Notes: generated by a model from the letters alone, not told the origin. A DNA stretch of 64,000 nt from Escherichia coli (GCF_003334355.1 NZ_QOWP01000021.1), one strand, 5' to 3'; positions 40,413-45,014 are shown, counted from the first letter of the stretch. Numbers and translations: made by a program.

Positions 40413-40490
40413 TGTTCACACTGTTCACTTTGGATTTTTACCATTCAAAATCAAGGAAATAGAAGTTAACTGTACGGTGAAGAGTGAACA
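40413..40490. repeat. Iteron cluster (TGTTCAC / GTGAACA), candidate satellite ori or crr
   Basis: tgttcac at 40413 and 40422; gtgaaca at 40484; similar to the cluster at 44799-45014. Confidence 0.45.
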
Positions 40491-40551
40491 GATAACTCTA
40501 CATTCTTGTGCCAGCAAAAATAAAACCCGGCATCAGCCGGGTTAGTTGAAA

Positions 40552-42885
40552 TTATTTGATTGTTGGCTCATCGCACTTGGGTAGCCAGTCTGCATTACTT
40601 TCCTCTTTTAAAGTGAGGTTAGTCTGCATTCCCTGATTAGTTCGCCGTTTCTCATAATGTAGCCCGTACTCCTTCAGCATGACTGGCAACCCTTTGCCAA
40701 ACATCGTAAGACTCAGGGTGTTTTTATATCCATTAGCCTCCATGTATACGAGGTAGGCATGGTAAAGGTAGGTACGTGGCTGGCGTGGGACAATATTGGC
40801 GTTCCCCATAAACATGCCGTTGGTGTCAGGTAATGCCTCAAGATAGCCACAAAAATCAAATGCTGGATCAGCATCACGCTTGATGGTGAGAGCCTCATCA
40901 GAATTCTGCTGCGACTGAAGCAATGTTCTGGCGCTCATCGGATCGCTGAAACGCTGCATGAGCTGGCGAACAATCACAGCCAGTTCTCGTGCAATTTTAT
41001 CTTTCAGCTGCGGATCGCGTTCTTCCGGTGCTATCTGCTCAGGAAAATGCAGAATAACTCTCCTGCGGGACACACCACCACTGCGATCAGTGAAGCGCAT
41101 AGGATTATTATTTACGGCCAGGATAACCGCCGGAATATGTGTTGAATAAGCATTCTGATATTTGGGGTCCACCGATACCGCATCGCCACCAGTTATAGCC
41201 TTAAGCCCGGCGCCGTCGCCGCTCCACTTCTCCTGATCAGGCAGGCGAATAAGAGAAAAACCTATCAGAGCCGCACGTTCTCGCGGGGACTCCAGCGTTT
41301 CAATGGTCGCAGAGGTGGCGTTATCCTCTCCAGCAAGCATGGTCGCAATTTCAGCCAGAATACTTTTGCCACTTCCACCAGGGCCAGTCACTTCCAGAAA
41401 GAGCTGCCAGTCATAGCGATTCGCCAGCACCATAAATAACGCCGCAAGAATAATGTCGCGTTTTTCTGGCTTGTGTCCGGCAGCCCGGTCCAGCCAGCGC
41501 CAGAATGCCGGGGCATGAGTTTCAAGCGTTTCCCCCTCTACCGGTGGCGTGAAATCGACTTCACACAGGGTACGCAGCCAGTTCTCTTTACAGTGCGGAC
41601 TAAACAGCCCTGTTCGCGTATCGAGGACGCCATTACGAAAACCGATCAGATGACGTGCCGGATTTTGCTGCTGCGGAACAATTAACTTTAATGTTTCCAC
41701 CAGTGAAGCAATTTTTCCTGAGGAAAACGGTGCACCGAGGCGCTGGAAAAGGGCTGCGACATCTCGGGCAAAATCTGACTGAGAAATCACTTTCCATGCT
41801 CCAGACTCGTAGCGGGATAAAAGCTGCCCGTTCGGATCAACCGCCAGTGCATCCCTGTAATGCTCCCGAACCCTCTGAGCTTTTTCGCTGACACTCATCG
41901 CTGTGAATTCTGCTTCACTCATTGTGTCGAAAGGACTGGCGTTATGTGGCTTCAAAGCCTCAAGAATTGCCTTCCGGGTGGATTCCTCTCCGTATTGGGT
42001 AAGCGCATCATTCCAGTCACCAAAAACCGGTGGCAGCACAATGTCACACTGACACGCTTTTGCAGCAGTTTCAGCCCTGTTCTGGCCTGAACCATTCAGA
42101 TCGCGGTCCGCTGCAATAATTAACTGATATCCCGGATACTTGTTATGGGCAACGCTGGCCAGAGAAAGAAAGTTGACCGACGAAAATGCCACCATGACGG
42201 CTTCTCCTGTCAGATGACGAATGGTAAGCGCCGTGGCGTAACCTTCCGCAATCCATATCCTTCTTACAGAACTCCCGCCCCCTTCTATCAGATGATAGGC
42301 CTCCTTAACCTGACCTCCTTTAAGAAAACACTTGCTACCATTGCCACTGATAAGCTGAATATTCACCAGTTCCCCGTCAGCGTTATAGAGCGGGACGATC
42401 AAATCACCGGGGCGGAACATCACCCCACCGGTTTTATGACCTGAAGTCAGCTCATGGCAAATATGCTCCGGGAAACCTTTATGTGTAAGATAAGTATTTC
42501 CGGCAGATTCACGCGAGGCTTGCAGTAGTCGCGCGGCAAGTGCTGCCGCCGCCTGTTTCCCGCCATCTGTATCTGCGGTTGACGTCCAGACTCCAGAAGA
42601 GGCTGAAGACAGACTATGTGTCAGTCCATGTATCCTGTCTGCTGCTTCACTGATATCCACATTCAGTACCTTGCTGACAAGCGCTAAACCGTCCCCAGCC
42701 CCGCACTGGTTGCAGAACCATGTTCCACGTCCTTCCAGATCGTCGAAGCGAAAACGATCTTTACCGGCGCAGACCGGACAAGGCTGATGGCGATTTTTCA
42801 GTATGTTCATACCCAGCGCTGGCAAAATCCGCGCCCAGTGACCGCGGGCAGCCTTCACGGCCTGACTGACTTTCATTCCTGACAT
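40552..42885 (-). CDS. P4 alpha-like primase/helicase (zinc-binding primase N-terminus)
   Basis: 777 aa from ATG 42885 (agggag RBS 9 nt upstream); N-terminal CPVCAGKDRF...CNQCGAG zinc finger; Walker A VTGPGGSGKS. Confidence 0.8.
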   Translation of the reverse strand: MSGMKVSQAVKAARGHWARILPALGMNILKNRHQPCPVCAGKDRFRFDDLEGRGTWFCNQCGAGDGLALVSKVLNVDISEAADRIHGLTHSLSSASSGVWTSTADTDGGKQAAAALAARLLQASRESAGNTYLTHKGFPEHICHELTSGHKTGGVMFRPGDLIVPLYNADGELVNIQLISGNGSKCFLKGGQVKEAYHLIEGGGSSVRRIWIAEGYATALTIRHLTGEAVMVAFSSVNFLSLASVAHNKYPGYQLIIAADRDLNGSGQNRAETAAKACQCDIVLPPVFGDWNDALTQYGEESTRKAILEALKPHNASPFDTMSEAEFTAMSVSEKAQRVREHYRDALAVDPNGQLLSRYESGAWKVISQSDFARDVAALFQRLGAPFSSGKIASLVETLKLIVPQQQNPARHLIGFRNGVLDTRTGLFSPHCKENWLRTLCEVDFTPPVEGETLETHAPAFWRWLDRAAGHKPEKRDIILAALFMVLANRYDWQLFLEVTGPGGSGKSILAEIATMLAGEDNATSATIETLESPRERAALIGFSLIRLPDQEKWSGDGAGLKAITGGDAVSVDPKYQNAYSTHIPAVILAVNNNPMRFTDRSGGVSRRRVILHFPEQIAPEERDPQLKDKIARELAVIVRQLMQRFSDPMSARTLLQSQQNSDEALTIKRDADPAFDFCGYLEALPDTNGMFMGNANIVPRQPRTYLYHAYLVYMEANGYKNTLSLTMFGKGLPVMLKEYGLHYEKRRTNQGMQTNLTLKEESNADWLPKCDEPTIK

Positions 42886-42899
42886 GATGCAGTTCTCCC

Positions 42900-43223
42900 T
42901 CAGTGTAAAACCGGCTTTATAATGTGACGGACGCATAACTCATCCATTACGGCTATTCCGAGCTGGGAGAGTGCGGGGCAGGACATTAGAGGACCGGATT
43001 CCATCAGGTCTGAAAGCAGGGCGCAGGCGATTTCCATGCCTTTTGTTTGCCCGTGCTGTCGCAGATAAAAACCTTCAAGCTCACGGGCAATGGCGGTTTC
43101 AATTTCATCCAGAGTGAGCTGCAGGTGGCGGTTGTGCTGATGGCAGATACTCAGCCAGGCGCAGGCAACCGCGCGGCGATATAACGCCAGCCGAAGTGAG
43201 AGGGGAAGAGTGCGTGATTTCAT
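42900..43223 (-). CDS. Hypothetical satellite protein (107 aa), translationally coupled upstream of primase
   Basis: ORF in polycistronic minus-strand operon with overlapping stop/start codons. Confidence 0.5.
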
Positions 43224-43447
43224 TGCACCACCTCCTTGTTCATCAGGTCATCCTGGCAACGCTGTACCACGCCATCAAGCTGTTCTGTCATCAGATAAAT
43301 CAGGGAAACCAGTTGCTCACATTGAGCACCTGCAGGTTTTTCATAGCAGTCCTGAAGAACAGCCATTCCGGTGACAAATTCCCCCACGTTACGAAGATGC
43401 TTGAGGCGGACAATATCGTCATAAGAAATTGCGGCGTGATTCATCAC
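43220..43447 (-). CDS. Hypothetical satellite protein (75 aa)
   Basis: ORF overlapping neighbours by 4 nt. Confidence 0.45.
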
Positions 43448-43995
43448 ATCACCTCCCCGGCAGGCAGCCGTGCAGAAAGGGAGAGCACATAATCACGGAC
43501 CAGCGAAAGGCGTGCAAAGCGCTCATCGCAGGCCACGGTGCGAAGCATACAGATGCGGGGTTGAGTGTCAGCACGGCGGATTGCGGCAAGCACAAAGACA
43601 TATTGCGGGTAAAACGGGGTGAGGGTTGTAGCCATGATGGCAGCCTCCATTGAGTAGCGGTTATTGCTACCACCGGAAACGCCAATTTCACTGGTGGCAG
43701 CCCGAACGGGGTTGGCGTAACCGGCCTCAATGGATACCGGCCAGCCCGAAGGCTGCCCCGCCCGGACTGCCATTATCTCGAAAGAACCACGGTGTACGCA
43801 TAAACACCACAGCCTGGAAAATGGGTGTGCCAGAGCTTCGACGAAAAAAAAGACGCTTGGCGCGTCTGGTGTCGCCATTGAGTTTCGCGGAACGCCAATT
43901 CCGGCTGCCGATTTTGCGGCAGCGGAAAAACTATACCTGGAAATGACTGCAGGATGCAAGCCAGAAAAATGGGGATTAATGCGTTCAGGCATCAT
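43444..43995 (-). CDS. Hypothetical satellite protein (183 aa)
   Basis: ORF overlapping neighbours; no recognisable motif. Confidence 0.5.
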
Positions 43996-44255
43996 TATGC
44001 ATCACATCCCCGTCCGCGGGCACTTATACGATCCGCCATCCATGCGCTTACCTCTGACTGTGCCCAGGCAACATTTTTACCACCAAGCGGGATCTGCTTC
44101 GGGAAAGCATCGCGGCTTATCAGGTCGTATATAGTTGAGCGGGACAAGCCGCATAAATGCATCACCTCGGGAAGACGTAAAAATCGCTCATGCTGGTTCA
44201 GCACAGGAAATAATGGCGCAGCCGGAGCTGGCGCAGAAACAGAAATATCATGCAT
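43995..44255 (-). CDS. alpA: AlpA/Vis-family phage transcriptional regulator
   Basis: 86-aa ORF; HTH-like [21 protein letters not shown] segment typical of the AlpA family. Confidence 0.75.
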
Positions 44256-44798
44256 TTATCTACCCTCTTTAATTCCTTCATCAGTCCGGATAAATCCCCC
44301 CGGATTCAGGTAGTTCCTTATTATGTATATATTTCTCGCTTACGCACCCATTATTTATTTAGCGTCACATATTGATTTAATGGAATTTAAAACTATATCA
44401 AACCACATAAAATGGCATGATAGATATTATGTCTGCGAACTATAAATACAGGGACATTAATAGGAACTAACTTTCATCCAGGGGTTACTACCCCATAAGT
44501 CATAGAACTTAATGGTACTGAAACCGCAACCCATTCAGCAGGGATGCACAATTTCTACATATGGCTTTACATTGCAAACCTAACTTCAGGATATACTCAT
44601 GAATTGCATCAAGCTCAGAAGAATTAGAACCGCATAAAATCAATAACCACGCATTCTTAACCTAAAAATATATCCAAATAAATTCATAAAAGACCGAGCA
44701 GTTCTAGTTTTATAAAAATCAGATTGAAATGCAACACCAGGGAAAGGGGGGAATCATGTTATTTCCCGGCAAAGAAAAATCGTCTATTTCATCATCTG

Positions 44799-45014
44799 TT
44801 GAATACTACTGAAGAGTGGTGAATAGTTGTGAGGAACAATAATGAAATAATCATTCGGAATAAAAATTCCACTTTTGATGAAAAAAAATCATAAATCACG
44901 CTACCTTCCGATGAACACTCATGAACAGTCACTGAATACTGCCTTGTCAACCCTTCACCTCTTAACTAGCTGTATTATCAATTTTTTTATCAAAGTGAAC
45001 AGTAGTGAATAGTA
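44799..45014. promoter_or_regulatory. Divergent late-promoter region with iteron cluster (at least 7 copies of TGAA[CT]A[CGT]), candidate crr/ori and Delta-activated promoters
   Basis: Repeats at 44799-44835, 44912-44939, 44995-45014 between divergent alpA and sid-like operons. Confidence 0.45.

Follow-up and report, generated by a model that had tools for sequence, protein, structure and literature searches.

Two iteron clusters as the likely ori and crr of a P4-like satellite prophage integrated at ssrA in Escherichia coli

The locus

The DNA studied here is a 64,000-nucleotide stretch of Escherichia coli (GCF_003334355.1, NZ_QOWP01000021.1; the whole stretch is called the window, and positions are counted from its first base). 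A prophage related to the satellite phage P4 spans window positions ~40236–52684, with gene content and order as in P4, and contains two clusters of short repeats (iterons) centered ~4.45 kb apart. We think it very likely from the sequence that these clusters are the replication origin (ori) and the cis replication region (crr) of a complete ~12.4 kb satellite integrated at ssrA. A first-pass annotation had noted a resemblance to the ori and crr of P4 in two clusters about 4.4 kb apart, and had read them as the satellite’s origin and cis replication region. That reading is now supported by homology: the element is syntenic with P4 (annotated with crr, ori and type 1 repeats in GenBank X51522/X05623), the repeats align, and the initiator is intact.

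From left to right, the element carries the putative crr, a terminator, alpha, cnr, a CI-type RNA, ORF88/vis, the putative ori, sid, psu, delta, cos, a defense hotspot and int. Its best phage match by blastn is P4 itself, at 70.7% identity over window positions 40390–44334 (crr through ORF88). Every P4 core gene is open and full length, and all seven core components described for the P4-like family (PMC8628076) are co-localized: int, psu, delta, sid, alpA, the epsilon/CI region and alpha, as identified by PHROG, Pfam-type and pairwise matches and by the C4 RNA.

The alpha gene (40552–42885, minus strand) encodes a 777-residue primase–helicase–origin-binding initiator that shares 74% identity with P4 alpha (773 residues aligned) and matches a PHROG DNA primase family with E = 1e-223. 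Its C-terminal 100 residues match the origin-binding domain of the P4 protein (PDB 1KA8; E = 1.6e-48). The reading frame is open as far as 42936 (794 codons from the first ATG); P4 alpha and the RefSeq homologues (2334 nt) have 777 residues, so translation probably begins at the ATG at 42885, which follows the cnr stop codon by 14 nt. The cnr homologue (DUF5375; 42900–43223, minus strand; phrog_5991) is 69% identical to P4 ORF106. In P4, cnr is the copy-number regulator, and the gene is also shared with the wider P4-like family.

The right cluster aligns with the P4 origin

The right cluster lies in the intergenic region at 44256–45168 (880 bp by open reading frame (ORF) bounds), between the ORF88/Vis-like gene, which is the first of the leftward operon, and the sid-like gene, which is the first of the rightward one. 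In GenBank X51522, the P4 ori is annotated at 9086–9809 and includes three type 2 repeats (9176–9205) followed by six type 1 repeats (9310–9413). MAFFT aligns window positions 44911–45013 with P4 9306–9415, and the order of elements is the same in both: three direct iterons, one inverted iteron, TTAACT..CTGTATTA with a T-run, and two direct iterons 10 bp apart.

The first three iterons, all on the plus strand, are ATGAACACT (44911-19), ATGAACAGT (44921-29) and CTGAATACT (44932-40); they align with the P4 type 1 repeats at 9310–9338, keep the 10/11-bp spacing of P4, and have a column information of 1.63–1.87 bits in an alignment of relatives (conservation was measured on 39 representatives that are <92% identical to each other). 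The inverted iteron CCTTCACC (44952–44959, minus strand; family consensus TGTTCACC) aligns with the P4 type 1 repeat at 9353–9360 and scores 1.55 bits. Between the two iteron groups is an AT-rich block, TTAACTAGCTGTATTA followed by a run of seven T’s (44962–44989), which is conserved in P4 and, at 1.63 and 1.51 bits, among the relatives; its composition and position suggest that it is the unwinding region. The last two iterons, GTGAACAGT (44995–45003) and GTGAATAGT (45005-13), again on the plus strand, align with P4 type 1 repeats at 9396–9413, score 1.86–1.87 bits, and are both exact copies of GTGAAYAGT, the 9-mer that we derive below for the family as a whole.

Upstream of this core, an iteron-like triplet (TTGAATACT, CTGAAGAGT and GTGAATAGT; 44799–44827, plus strand) with a 10-bp phase occupies the position of the P4 type 2 repeats. 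Taking triplet and core together, the hexamer TGAAYA starts at 44800, 44820, 44912, 44922, 44933, 44996 and 45006 and TGAAGA at 44810, all on the plus strand, so that the eight TGAA(C/T/G)A copies are spaced by 10/10, 10/11 and 10 bp. The initial count of at least seven heptamer copies at 44799–45014 thus stands if a relaxed, TGAAYA-type core is meant but not for exact heptamers, of which the region has only one (44995–45001).

On the ORF88 side of the same intergenic region, between the PLL-like region and the ORF88-like gene, there are ~390 bp of AT-rich non-coding DNA (44265–44650) that P4 lacks. This extra DNA is conserved (~76–78%) only in one clade of relatives (L021–L032/L084), and no convincing ORF and no Rfam match were found in it.

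The left cluster aligns with one unit of the P4 crr

The P4 crr (X51522, 4291–4590) consists of two 120-bp direct repeats, each with five annotated “ori type 1 repeats”, and is followed by the alpha terminator (4604–4628). By MAFFT and blastn, window positions 40388–40510 form a single unit of ~120 bp that is homologous to P4 crr unit 2 (P4 4471–4590), and the MAFFT alignment continues to 40545 through the alpha terminator. In the window, that rho-independent terminator is found at 40524–40543 (minus strand), with an 8-bp stem that includes 6 GC pairs and a T-run, and it aligns with the P4 “t-alpha”. The position of the unit also corresponds to that in P4: it lies between the attachment site (att) core and arm site (40236–40251 and 40306–40328) on one side and the alpha terminator, with the alpha stop at 40552, on the other.

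The TGTTCAC/GTGAACA heptamers first reported at 40413–40490 are indeed present, as exact copies at 40413–40419 and 40422–40428 (plus strand) and 40484–40490 (minus strand), together with a TCTTCAC variant at 40477–40483 (minus strand). Read as 9-mers, the cluster (40411–40492) comprises four iterons that align base for base with one 120-bp P4 crr unit. The unit starts with an A7-CTC-T6 tract (40389–40404), and an A-run/T-run is also found at this place in P4 and nearly all relatives. Iterons 1 and 2 are on the minus strand: GTGAACAAT (40411–40419; TGTTCAC on the plus strand) aligns with the P4 type 1 repeat at 4494–4501, and GTGAACAGT (40420–40428), an exact family 9-mer, with that at 4503–4510. 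Iterons 3 and 4 are on the plus strand and overlap by 2 nt: GTGAAGAGT (40477–40485), opposed in orientation to the first two, corresponds in the alignment to GGTGAAGGG of the P4 crr, and GTGAACAGA (40484–40492) to the P4 type 1 repeat at 4564–4571. The opposed pair is contained in GGTGAAGAGTGAACAG (40476–40491), whose orientation is opposite to that of the TGTTCAC copies at 40413 and 40422. Invariant between the window and the P4 crr are the TGTTCACACTGTTCAC pair and the GGTGAAG(A/G)GTGAACA pair; among the relatives, the position of iteron 3 is filled by GTGAAGAGT or GTGAACAGT.

No second crr unit was found at 40150–40390. A single unit is usual, as only 7 of the 69 loci with a detectable crr (both P4 records counted) have two, which makes the duplication a peculiarity of P4 and a few relatives rather than a family trait. 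We also considered that the crr repeats might be arm sites for the integrase, and rejected this: the arm repeat is a different 23-mer that is present at both prophage ends.

The clustering of the motif is not random

Both clusters lie in AT-rich troughs of 31–34% GC (31% for the crr unit; 32–38% for the region of the six ori sites), as compared to 50–58% in the flanking genes, and one alternative explanation is that a short AT-rich word has clustered by chance in AT-rich intergenic DNA. Some counts could be taken to favor it: exact TGTTCAC exceeds expectation only modestly in the 64 kb (13 copies vs. 7.6 expected, a number reached by 3 of 100 shuffles), and a stray 9-mer, GTGAATAGT at 39897, lies outside the prophage. 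Window-wide counts of exact TGTTCAC and of TGTTCACC with one mismatch are weakly enriched and miss most ori copies; strict matching was replaced by hexamer-core, family-9-mer and cluster statistics. With these, the enumeration across the window shows that the clustering in both regions is non-random. The pattern TGAA[CT]A[GC]T occurs 13 times in the 64 kb (both strands), with seven copies inside 214 bp at 44800–45013, whereas the largest 220-bp cluster in each of 100 first-order Markov simulations had one or two. The family 9-mer GTGAAYAGT occurs five times vs. 0.70 expected, which none of 100 shuffles reached; four of the five sites (40420 on the minus strand, 44819, 44995 and 45005) are in the two clusters, and the stray match is the fifth. 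The left cluster alone packs 3 of the window’s 13 exact TGTTCAC heptamers into 78 bp. Given in addition that the 10/11-bp phasing is identical to that in P4, and that the alignment of 70 distinct relatives shows position-by-position conservation of the sites, chance can be regarded as excluded.

Two further searches bear on how the clusters are detected. A position matrix built solely from P4’s 16 annotated type 1 repeats finds its densest region of the window at 40251–40650, i.e. at the crr. A repeat search with a 7-nt seed recovered only one iteron pair in the ori, because the repeat units are short. Outside the satellite, four exact TGTTCAC copies, all on the plus strand, fall within 1.7 kb (18917, 18995, 19540 and 20617; region 18917–20623); no long ORF is listed for 18000–20190.

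Conservation among relatives

An alpha-seeded peptide scan of IMG/VR yielded 80 loci with alpha proteins 74–100% identical to ours, to which three E. coli chromosomal loci were added. The ori core was detected in 84 of 86 sequences and the crr unit in 69, and many of the contigs in which no crr was detected end at alpha. In an alignment of 70 distinct ori sequences, the iterons appear as near-invariant islands amid diverging DNA. Among the 39 representatives, iteron columns average 1.76 bits of information (53 columns) vs. 0.95 bits for the others (123 columns; Mann–Whitney p = 4e-15).

The relatives also redefine the motif. When TGAAYA sites were collected from their ori and crr regions, with flanking positions unused in the selection, the flanks proved to be conserved as well: G at −1 in 90%, G at +6 in 76–88% and T at +7 in 91%. 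The second G of P4’s GGTGAACA (position −2) is found in only 55% of the sites in ori and 25% of those in crr. Based on this flank conservation, the family iteron is GTGAAYAGT, one base out of register with the P4 octamer; and because its final C is poorly conserved family-wide, the exact octamer TGTTCACC is P4-specific rather than family-defining.

Across the 86 loci, the origin-binding domain of alpha never falls below 79% identity, and some elements share this domain with the window at 100% identity although their ori flanks match ours at only ~77%. This fits a DNA specificity of alpha that has stayed constant, and we rejected the idea that a change in it lies behind the variant iterons.

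A different reading of the repeats would make them mainly operators, bound by a regulator such as Vis/AlpA or Delta that acts on divergent PLL-like and Psid-like promoters, rather than initiator sites. The right cluster does lie in the 880-bp region between the divergent ORF88-like and sid-like genes, and the triplet at 44799–44827 sits at the P4 type 2 position, where the motif varies by clade as might be expected for a faster-evolving regulator. The first-pass annotation had likewise assigned the right cluster to a divergent promoter region; the repeats do lie between divergent promoters but do not form them. A TGT-N12-ACA dyad at 45079–45096, upstream of sid, has a similar counterpart in P4 at ~9493–9510, and we take it to be the Delta/Ogr activator site of a Psid-like promoter of the P2/P4 late type. 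Because this dyad is 66 bp past the last iteron, the iterons are outside the activator site. A sigma-70 promoter scan gave fewer sites than in shuffled sequences, none of them informative. The motif recurs 4.4 kb away, past the alpha terminator, in a place without a promoter that could be regulated, and the homologous P4 sites are annotated as origin repeats in GenBank. The iteron core stays constant across elements in which Vis, Sid and Delta differ strongly, and it tracks the conserved DNA-binding domain of alpha instead. We consider the operator explanation highly improbable.

The left operon itself is a mosaic. Comparing loci L006–L020 with L021–L029, elements with alpha proteins 96–97% identical to ours have Vis proteins only 77–82% identical, whereas those with Vis proteins 93–98% identical have alpha at 83–84% and Cnr at 68–74%. 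This pattern implies recombination between the alpha/cnr and vis modules.

Is the origin still in use?

Several observations weigh against interpreting the two clusters as a working ori and crr. The crr of the window has one unit with four sites, as opposed to two units with five sites each in P4, and two other P4 crr sites have been lost within the unit that it retains. No ori site is a perfect TGTTCACC: the exact octamer is absent from 44256–45140, the ori sites being variants with one or two mismatches, and four of the six core sites (ATGAACACT, ATGAACAGT, CTGAATACT and CCTTCACC) deviate from the family consensus as well, so their affinity may be lower than in P4. The P4 type 2 repeats (CACTTAAAGY, three copies) are absent upstream of the type 1 cluster and replaced by the TGAATA/TGAAGA triplet. 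The P4-derived matrix places the ori region (44751–45050) only joint second in density. Finally, the mechanism set out below, including the binding of alpha, the looping and the need for crr in cis, is modeled on P4 and its GenBank feature tables.

Some of these points would fit decaying relics, that is, sequences homologous to the P4 ori and crr in a cryptic prophage that no longer replicates autonomously and whose repeats have no current function. The off-consensus ori iterons (the first reads TGAACAC where all others aligned but one, L030, have TGAACAG), the single crr unit with its two lost sites, and the diverged cos-like sequence, with no match to the P4 cos at ≤3 mismatches, could all be signs of such decay. 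The rest of the element does not look decayed, however: its core genes are open and full length, its C4/CI RNA scores well over the Rfam threshold, the single crr unit is the norm for the family, and both downstream ori iterons, like crr iteron 2, are exact copies of the consensus. The lineage also recurs, with 100% identical alpha and a near-identical ori in three independent IMG/VR contigs, a 99.7% identical copy in E. coli strain 789, and 316 genomes that cover at least 80% of the query. We thus regard the relic explanation as unlikely, and prefer to interpret the clusters as the ori and crr of an intact satellite.

A proposed mechanism

If the element behaves as P4 does, then after derepression or excision the C-terminal winged-helix domain of alpha would bind the 9-bp GTGAAYAGT iterons: six in the ori core (44911–45013), four in the crr (40411–40492), and probably three more at 44799–44827. 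The alpha complexes at ori and crr would then pair, looping out the 4.4 kb between them, and the AT-rich block at 44962–44989 would open. With no need for host DnaA, DnaB or DnaG, the helicase and primase activities of alpha would next initiate bidirectional theta replication, while Cnr would increase DNA binding by alpha and limit copy number. By analogy, this copy would still be able to fire. In P4, the distant crr is required for replication and is not only inhibitory, and host DnaA, DnaB and DnaG are dispensable. The P4 mechanism reportedly goes back to work by Flensburg and Calendar in 1987, Ziegelin et al. in 1993–1997 and Yeo et al. in 2002.

Comparison with P4 and other systems

In addition to the repeats themselves, the window and P4 share the order of the neighborhood (att, crr, terminator, alpha, cnr ... 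ORF88, ori, sid), the motif core, the arrangement of the ori, the arrangement of the crr (an A/T tract, two direct iterons, an AT-rich spacer and opposed iterons), an alpha with the 1KA8 domain, Cnr, a terminator that separates alpha from crr, and a distance of several kb (about 4.4–4.9 kb) between ori and crr; measured from center to center it is ~4.45 kb here, and by GenBank coordinates ~4.7–5.1 kb in P4. Aligning the clusters with the annotated P4 type 1 repeats places both of them on the P4 ori and crr. Apart from the differences weighed above, the ~390 bp of extra DNA next to the ORF88-like gene have no P4 counterpart, and the operon for capsid size is highly diverged: the Sid and Psu proteins are only 23–28% identical to those of P4, in genes ordered sid-psu-delta.

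Iteron plasmids (R6K with pi, P1 with RepA/incA, RK2 with TrfA) similarly have phased initiator repeats beside an AT-rich region, and the same protein binds another iteron cluster, at a distance, which influences initiation via looping or pairing. To our knowledge, alpha, a primase–helicase fusion with a winged-helix C-terminal domain, is unrelated to the Rep, pi and TrfA families; the need of P4 for its distant site and its independence of host DnaA, DnaB and DnaG set it apart from these plasmids as well. The SaPI/PICI elements are also phage satellites with their own primase/helicase-type initiator and an AT-rich iteron origin near its gene. As far as we know, they differ in having a single origin directly downstream of rep and no separate crr-type element, and their proteins and repeats are unrelated to those described here.

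Within the P4-like family, the survey by Moura de Sousa and Rocha (PMC8628076) does not use “crr”, “iteron” or “origin of replication” in its main text, and the satellite’s own replication is not discussed in the passages found in Rousset et al. (PMC9122126). The non-coding architecture of the window adds to this literature and does not contradict it.

Other features of the prophage and its chromosomal site

The tmRNA gene ssrA was found at 52662–53024 (minus strand) by ARAGORN and Rfam. The left end of the prophage is marked by the att core GCTGGCGGAGTCTGAA (40236–40251), which local alignment identifies as an imperfect direct repeat of the ssrA 3′ end at 52669–52684; the two ends share GCTGGC(G)GGAGT(C)TGAA. 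E. coli genomes without the island join ~40240–40253 straight to ssrA. The integrase arm-type repeat GTATACCTAAGCGTATACCAATA (40306–40328, plus strand) has a second copy beside int at 52529–52551, a direct repeat identical at 22 of 23 positions; relatives that share this att type conserve it.

Between cnr and the ori region are a 75-residue gene (43220–43447, minus strand), which is prevalent between epsilon and alpha in the P4-like family but lacking in P4 (PMC8628076); a C4 antisense RNA of the P4 CI immunity-RNA type (43690–43777, minus strand; Rfam, 84.6 bits); an isrK RNA (43846–43923, minus strand; Rfam, 76.7 bits); and the ORF88/Vis/AlpA-like helix-turn-helix gene (43995–44255, minus strand), which is 64% identical to P4 ORF88 and matches excisionase/regulator PHROGs. 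Both RNAs are inside a 183-residue ORF (43444–43995) that is named “Icd-like protein” in RefSeq homologues, so some of the DNA under this ORF codes for RNA. At the Rfam gathering threshold, tmRNA, C4 and isrK were the sole matches, none of them in ori or crr.

To the right of the ori are the sid-like gene (45169–45921, plus strand; 23% identical to P4 Sid, E = 2e-6; phrog_6165; 753 nt in RefSeq homologues), the psu-like gene (45918–46472, plus strand; 28% identical to P4 Psu) and an Ogr/Delta-type zinc-finger gene (within 46372–46746, plus strand). The psu/delta swap that gives this order has been reported for ~20% of P4-like elements (PMC8628076). A gapped alignment shows that a cos-like region at ~46942–46980 is homologous to the cos junction of P4; its 19-nt cohesive end has diverged (GGCGGGCGGGGCAGCGCAC vs. 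GGCGAGGCGGGGAAAGCAC), the P4 19-mer having no match in the window at ≤3 mismatches, and it may reflect a different type of helper. Between the cos-like region and int is a Hachiman pair (47172–50697), HamA (DUF1837; 47172–48113, E = 1.7e-135) and the HamB helicase (48115–50697, 1135 bits), at the defense hotspot known from P4 (PMC9122126), beside cos. It is adjoined by a 152-residue ORF (50790–51248, minus strand; phrog_19013, no assigned function), and the integrase gene follows (51278–52477, minus strand; PHROG).

The left neighbor of the island is a 1567-residue autotransporter-like ORF (35370–40073), to the left of which is a tRNA gene with anticodon CAT (32389–32464). This flank resembles the ypjA ... 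ileY region after CP4-57 in E. coli K-12, and a K-12 match to window positions 40100–40282 supports the same chromosomal site.

A variable slot upstream of the ori core

Among the relatives, those with alpha at least 83% identical to ours carry two to four TGAATA copies at the position of the P4 type 2 repeats. In other clades the slot holds different, unrelated repeats (loci L001 and L030–L082 were compared with the window): ACTTAAAG or TTTAAAG in P4, L034 and L050, and in many others TGGCAAAC or TGCCAA. Copy number varies in 10-bp steps. A comparison of protein identities, confounded by shared ancestry and mosaicism, tied the slot to no single protein. It is possible, although we rather doubt it, that the slot is a swappable module of origin specificity that serves a second, fast-evolving factor (perhaps Vis/AlpA) in other elements and has been captured by alpha in this one. 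If so, the origin here would be tripartite in its binding of alpha, and its coupling to copy number or to promoters would be altered.

Implications

The window provides an ordinary new example of a well-studied system, and biologically it adds little to it. It does confirm that an ssrA island common in E. coli represents a complete satellite of the P4 type whose replication sites can be recognized, and it supplies base-level coordinates for the ori and crr of a widespread lineage; neither site is annotated in the three RefSeq homologue records inspected. For the family as a whole, it points to GTGAAYAGT rather than the P4 octamer as the iteron and to a single crr unit as the usual state, which should be useful for P4-based vectors and for predicting which P4-like prophages still replicate.

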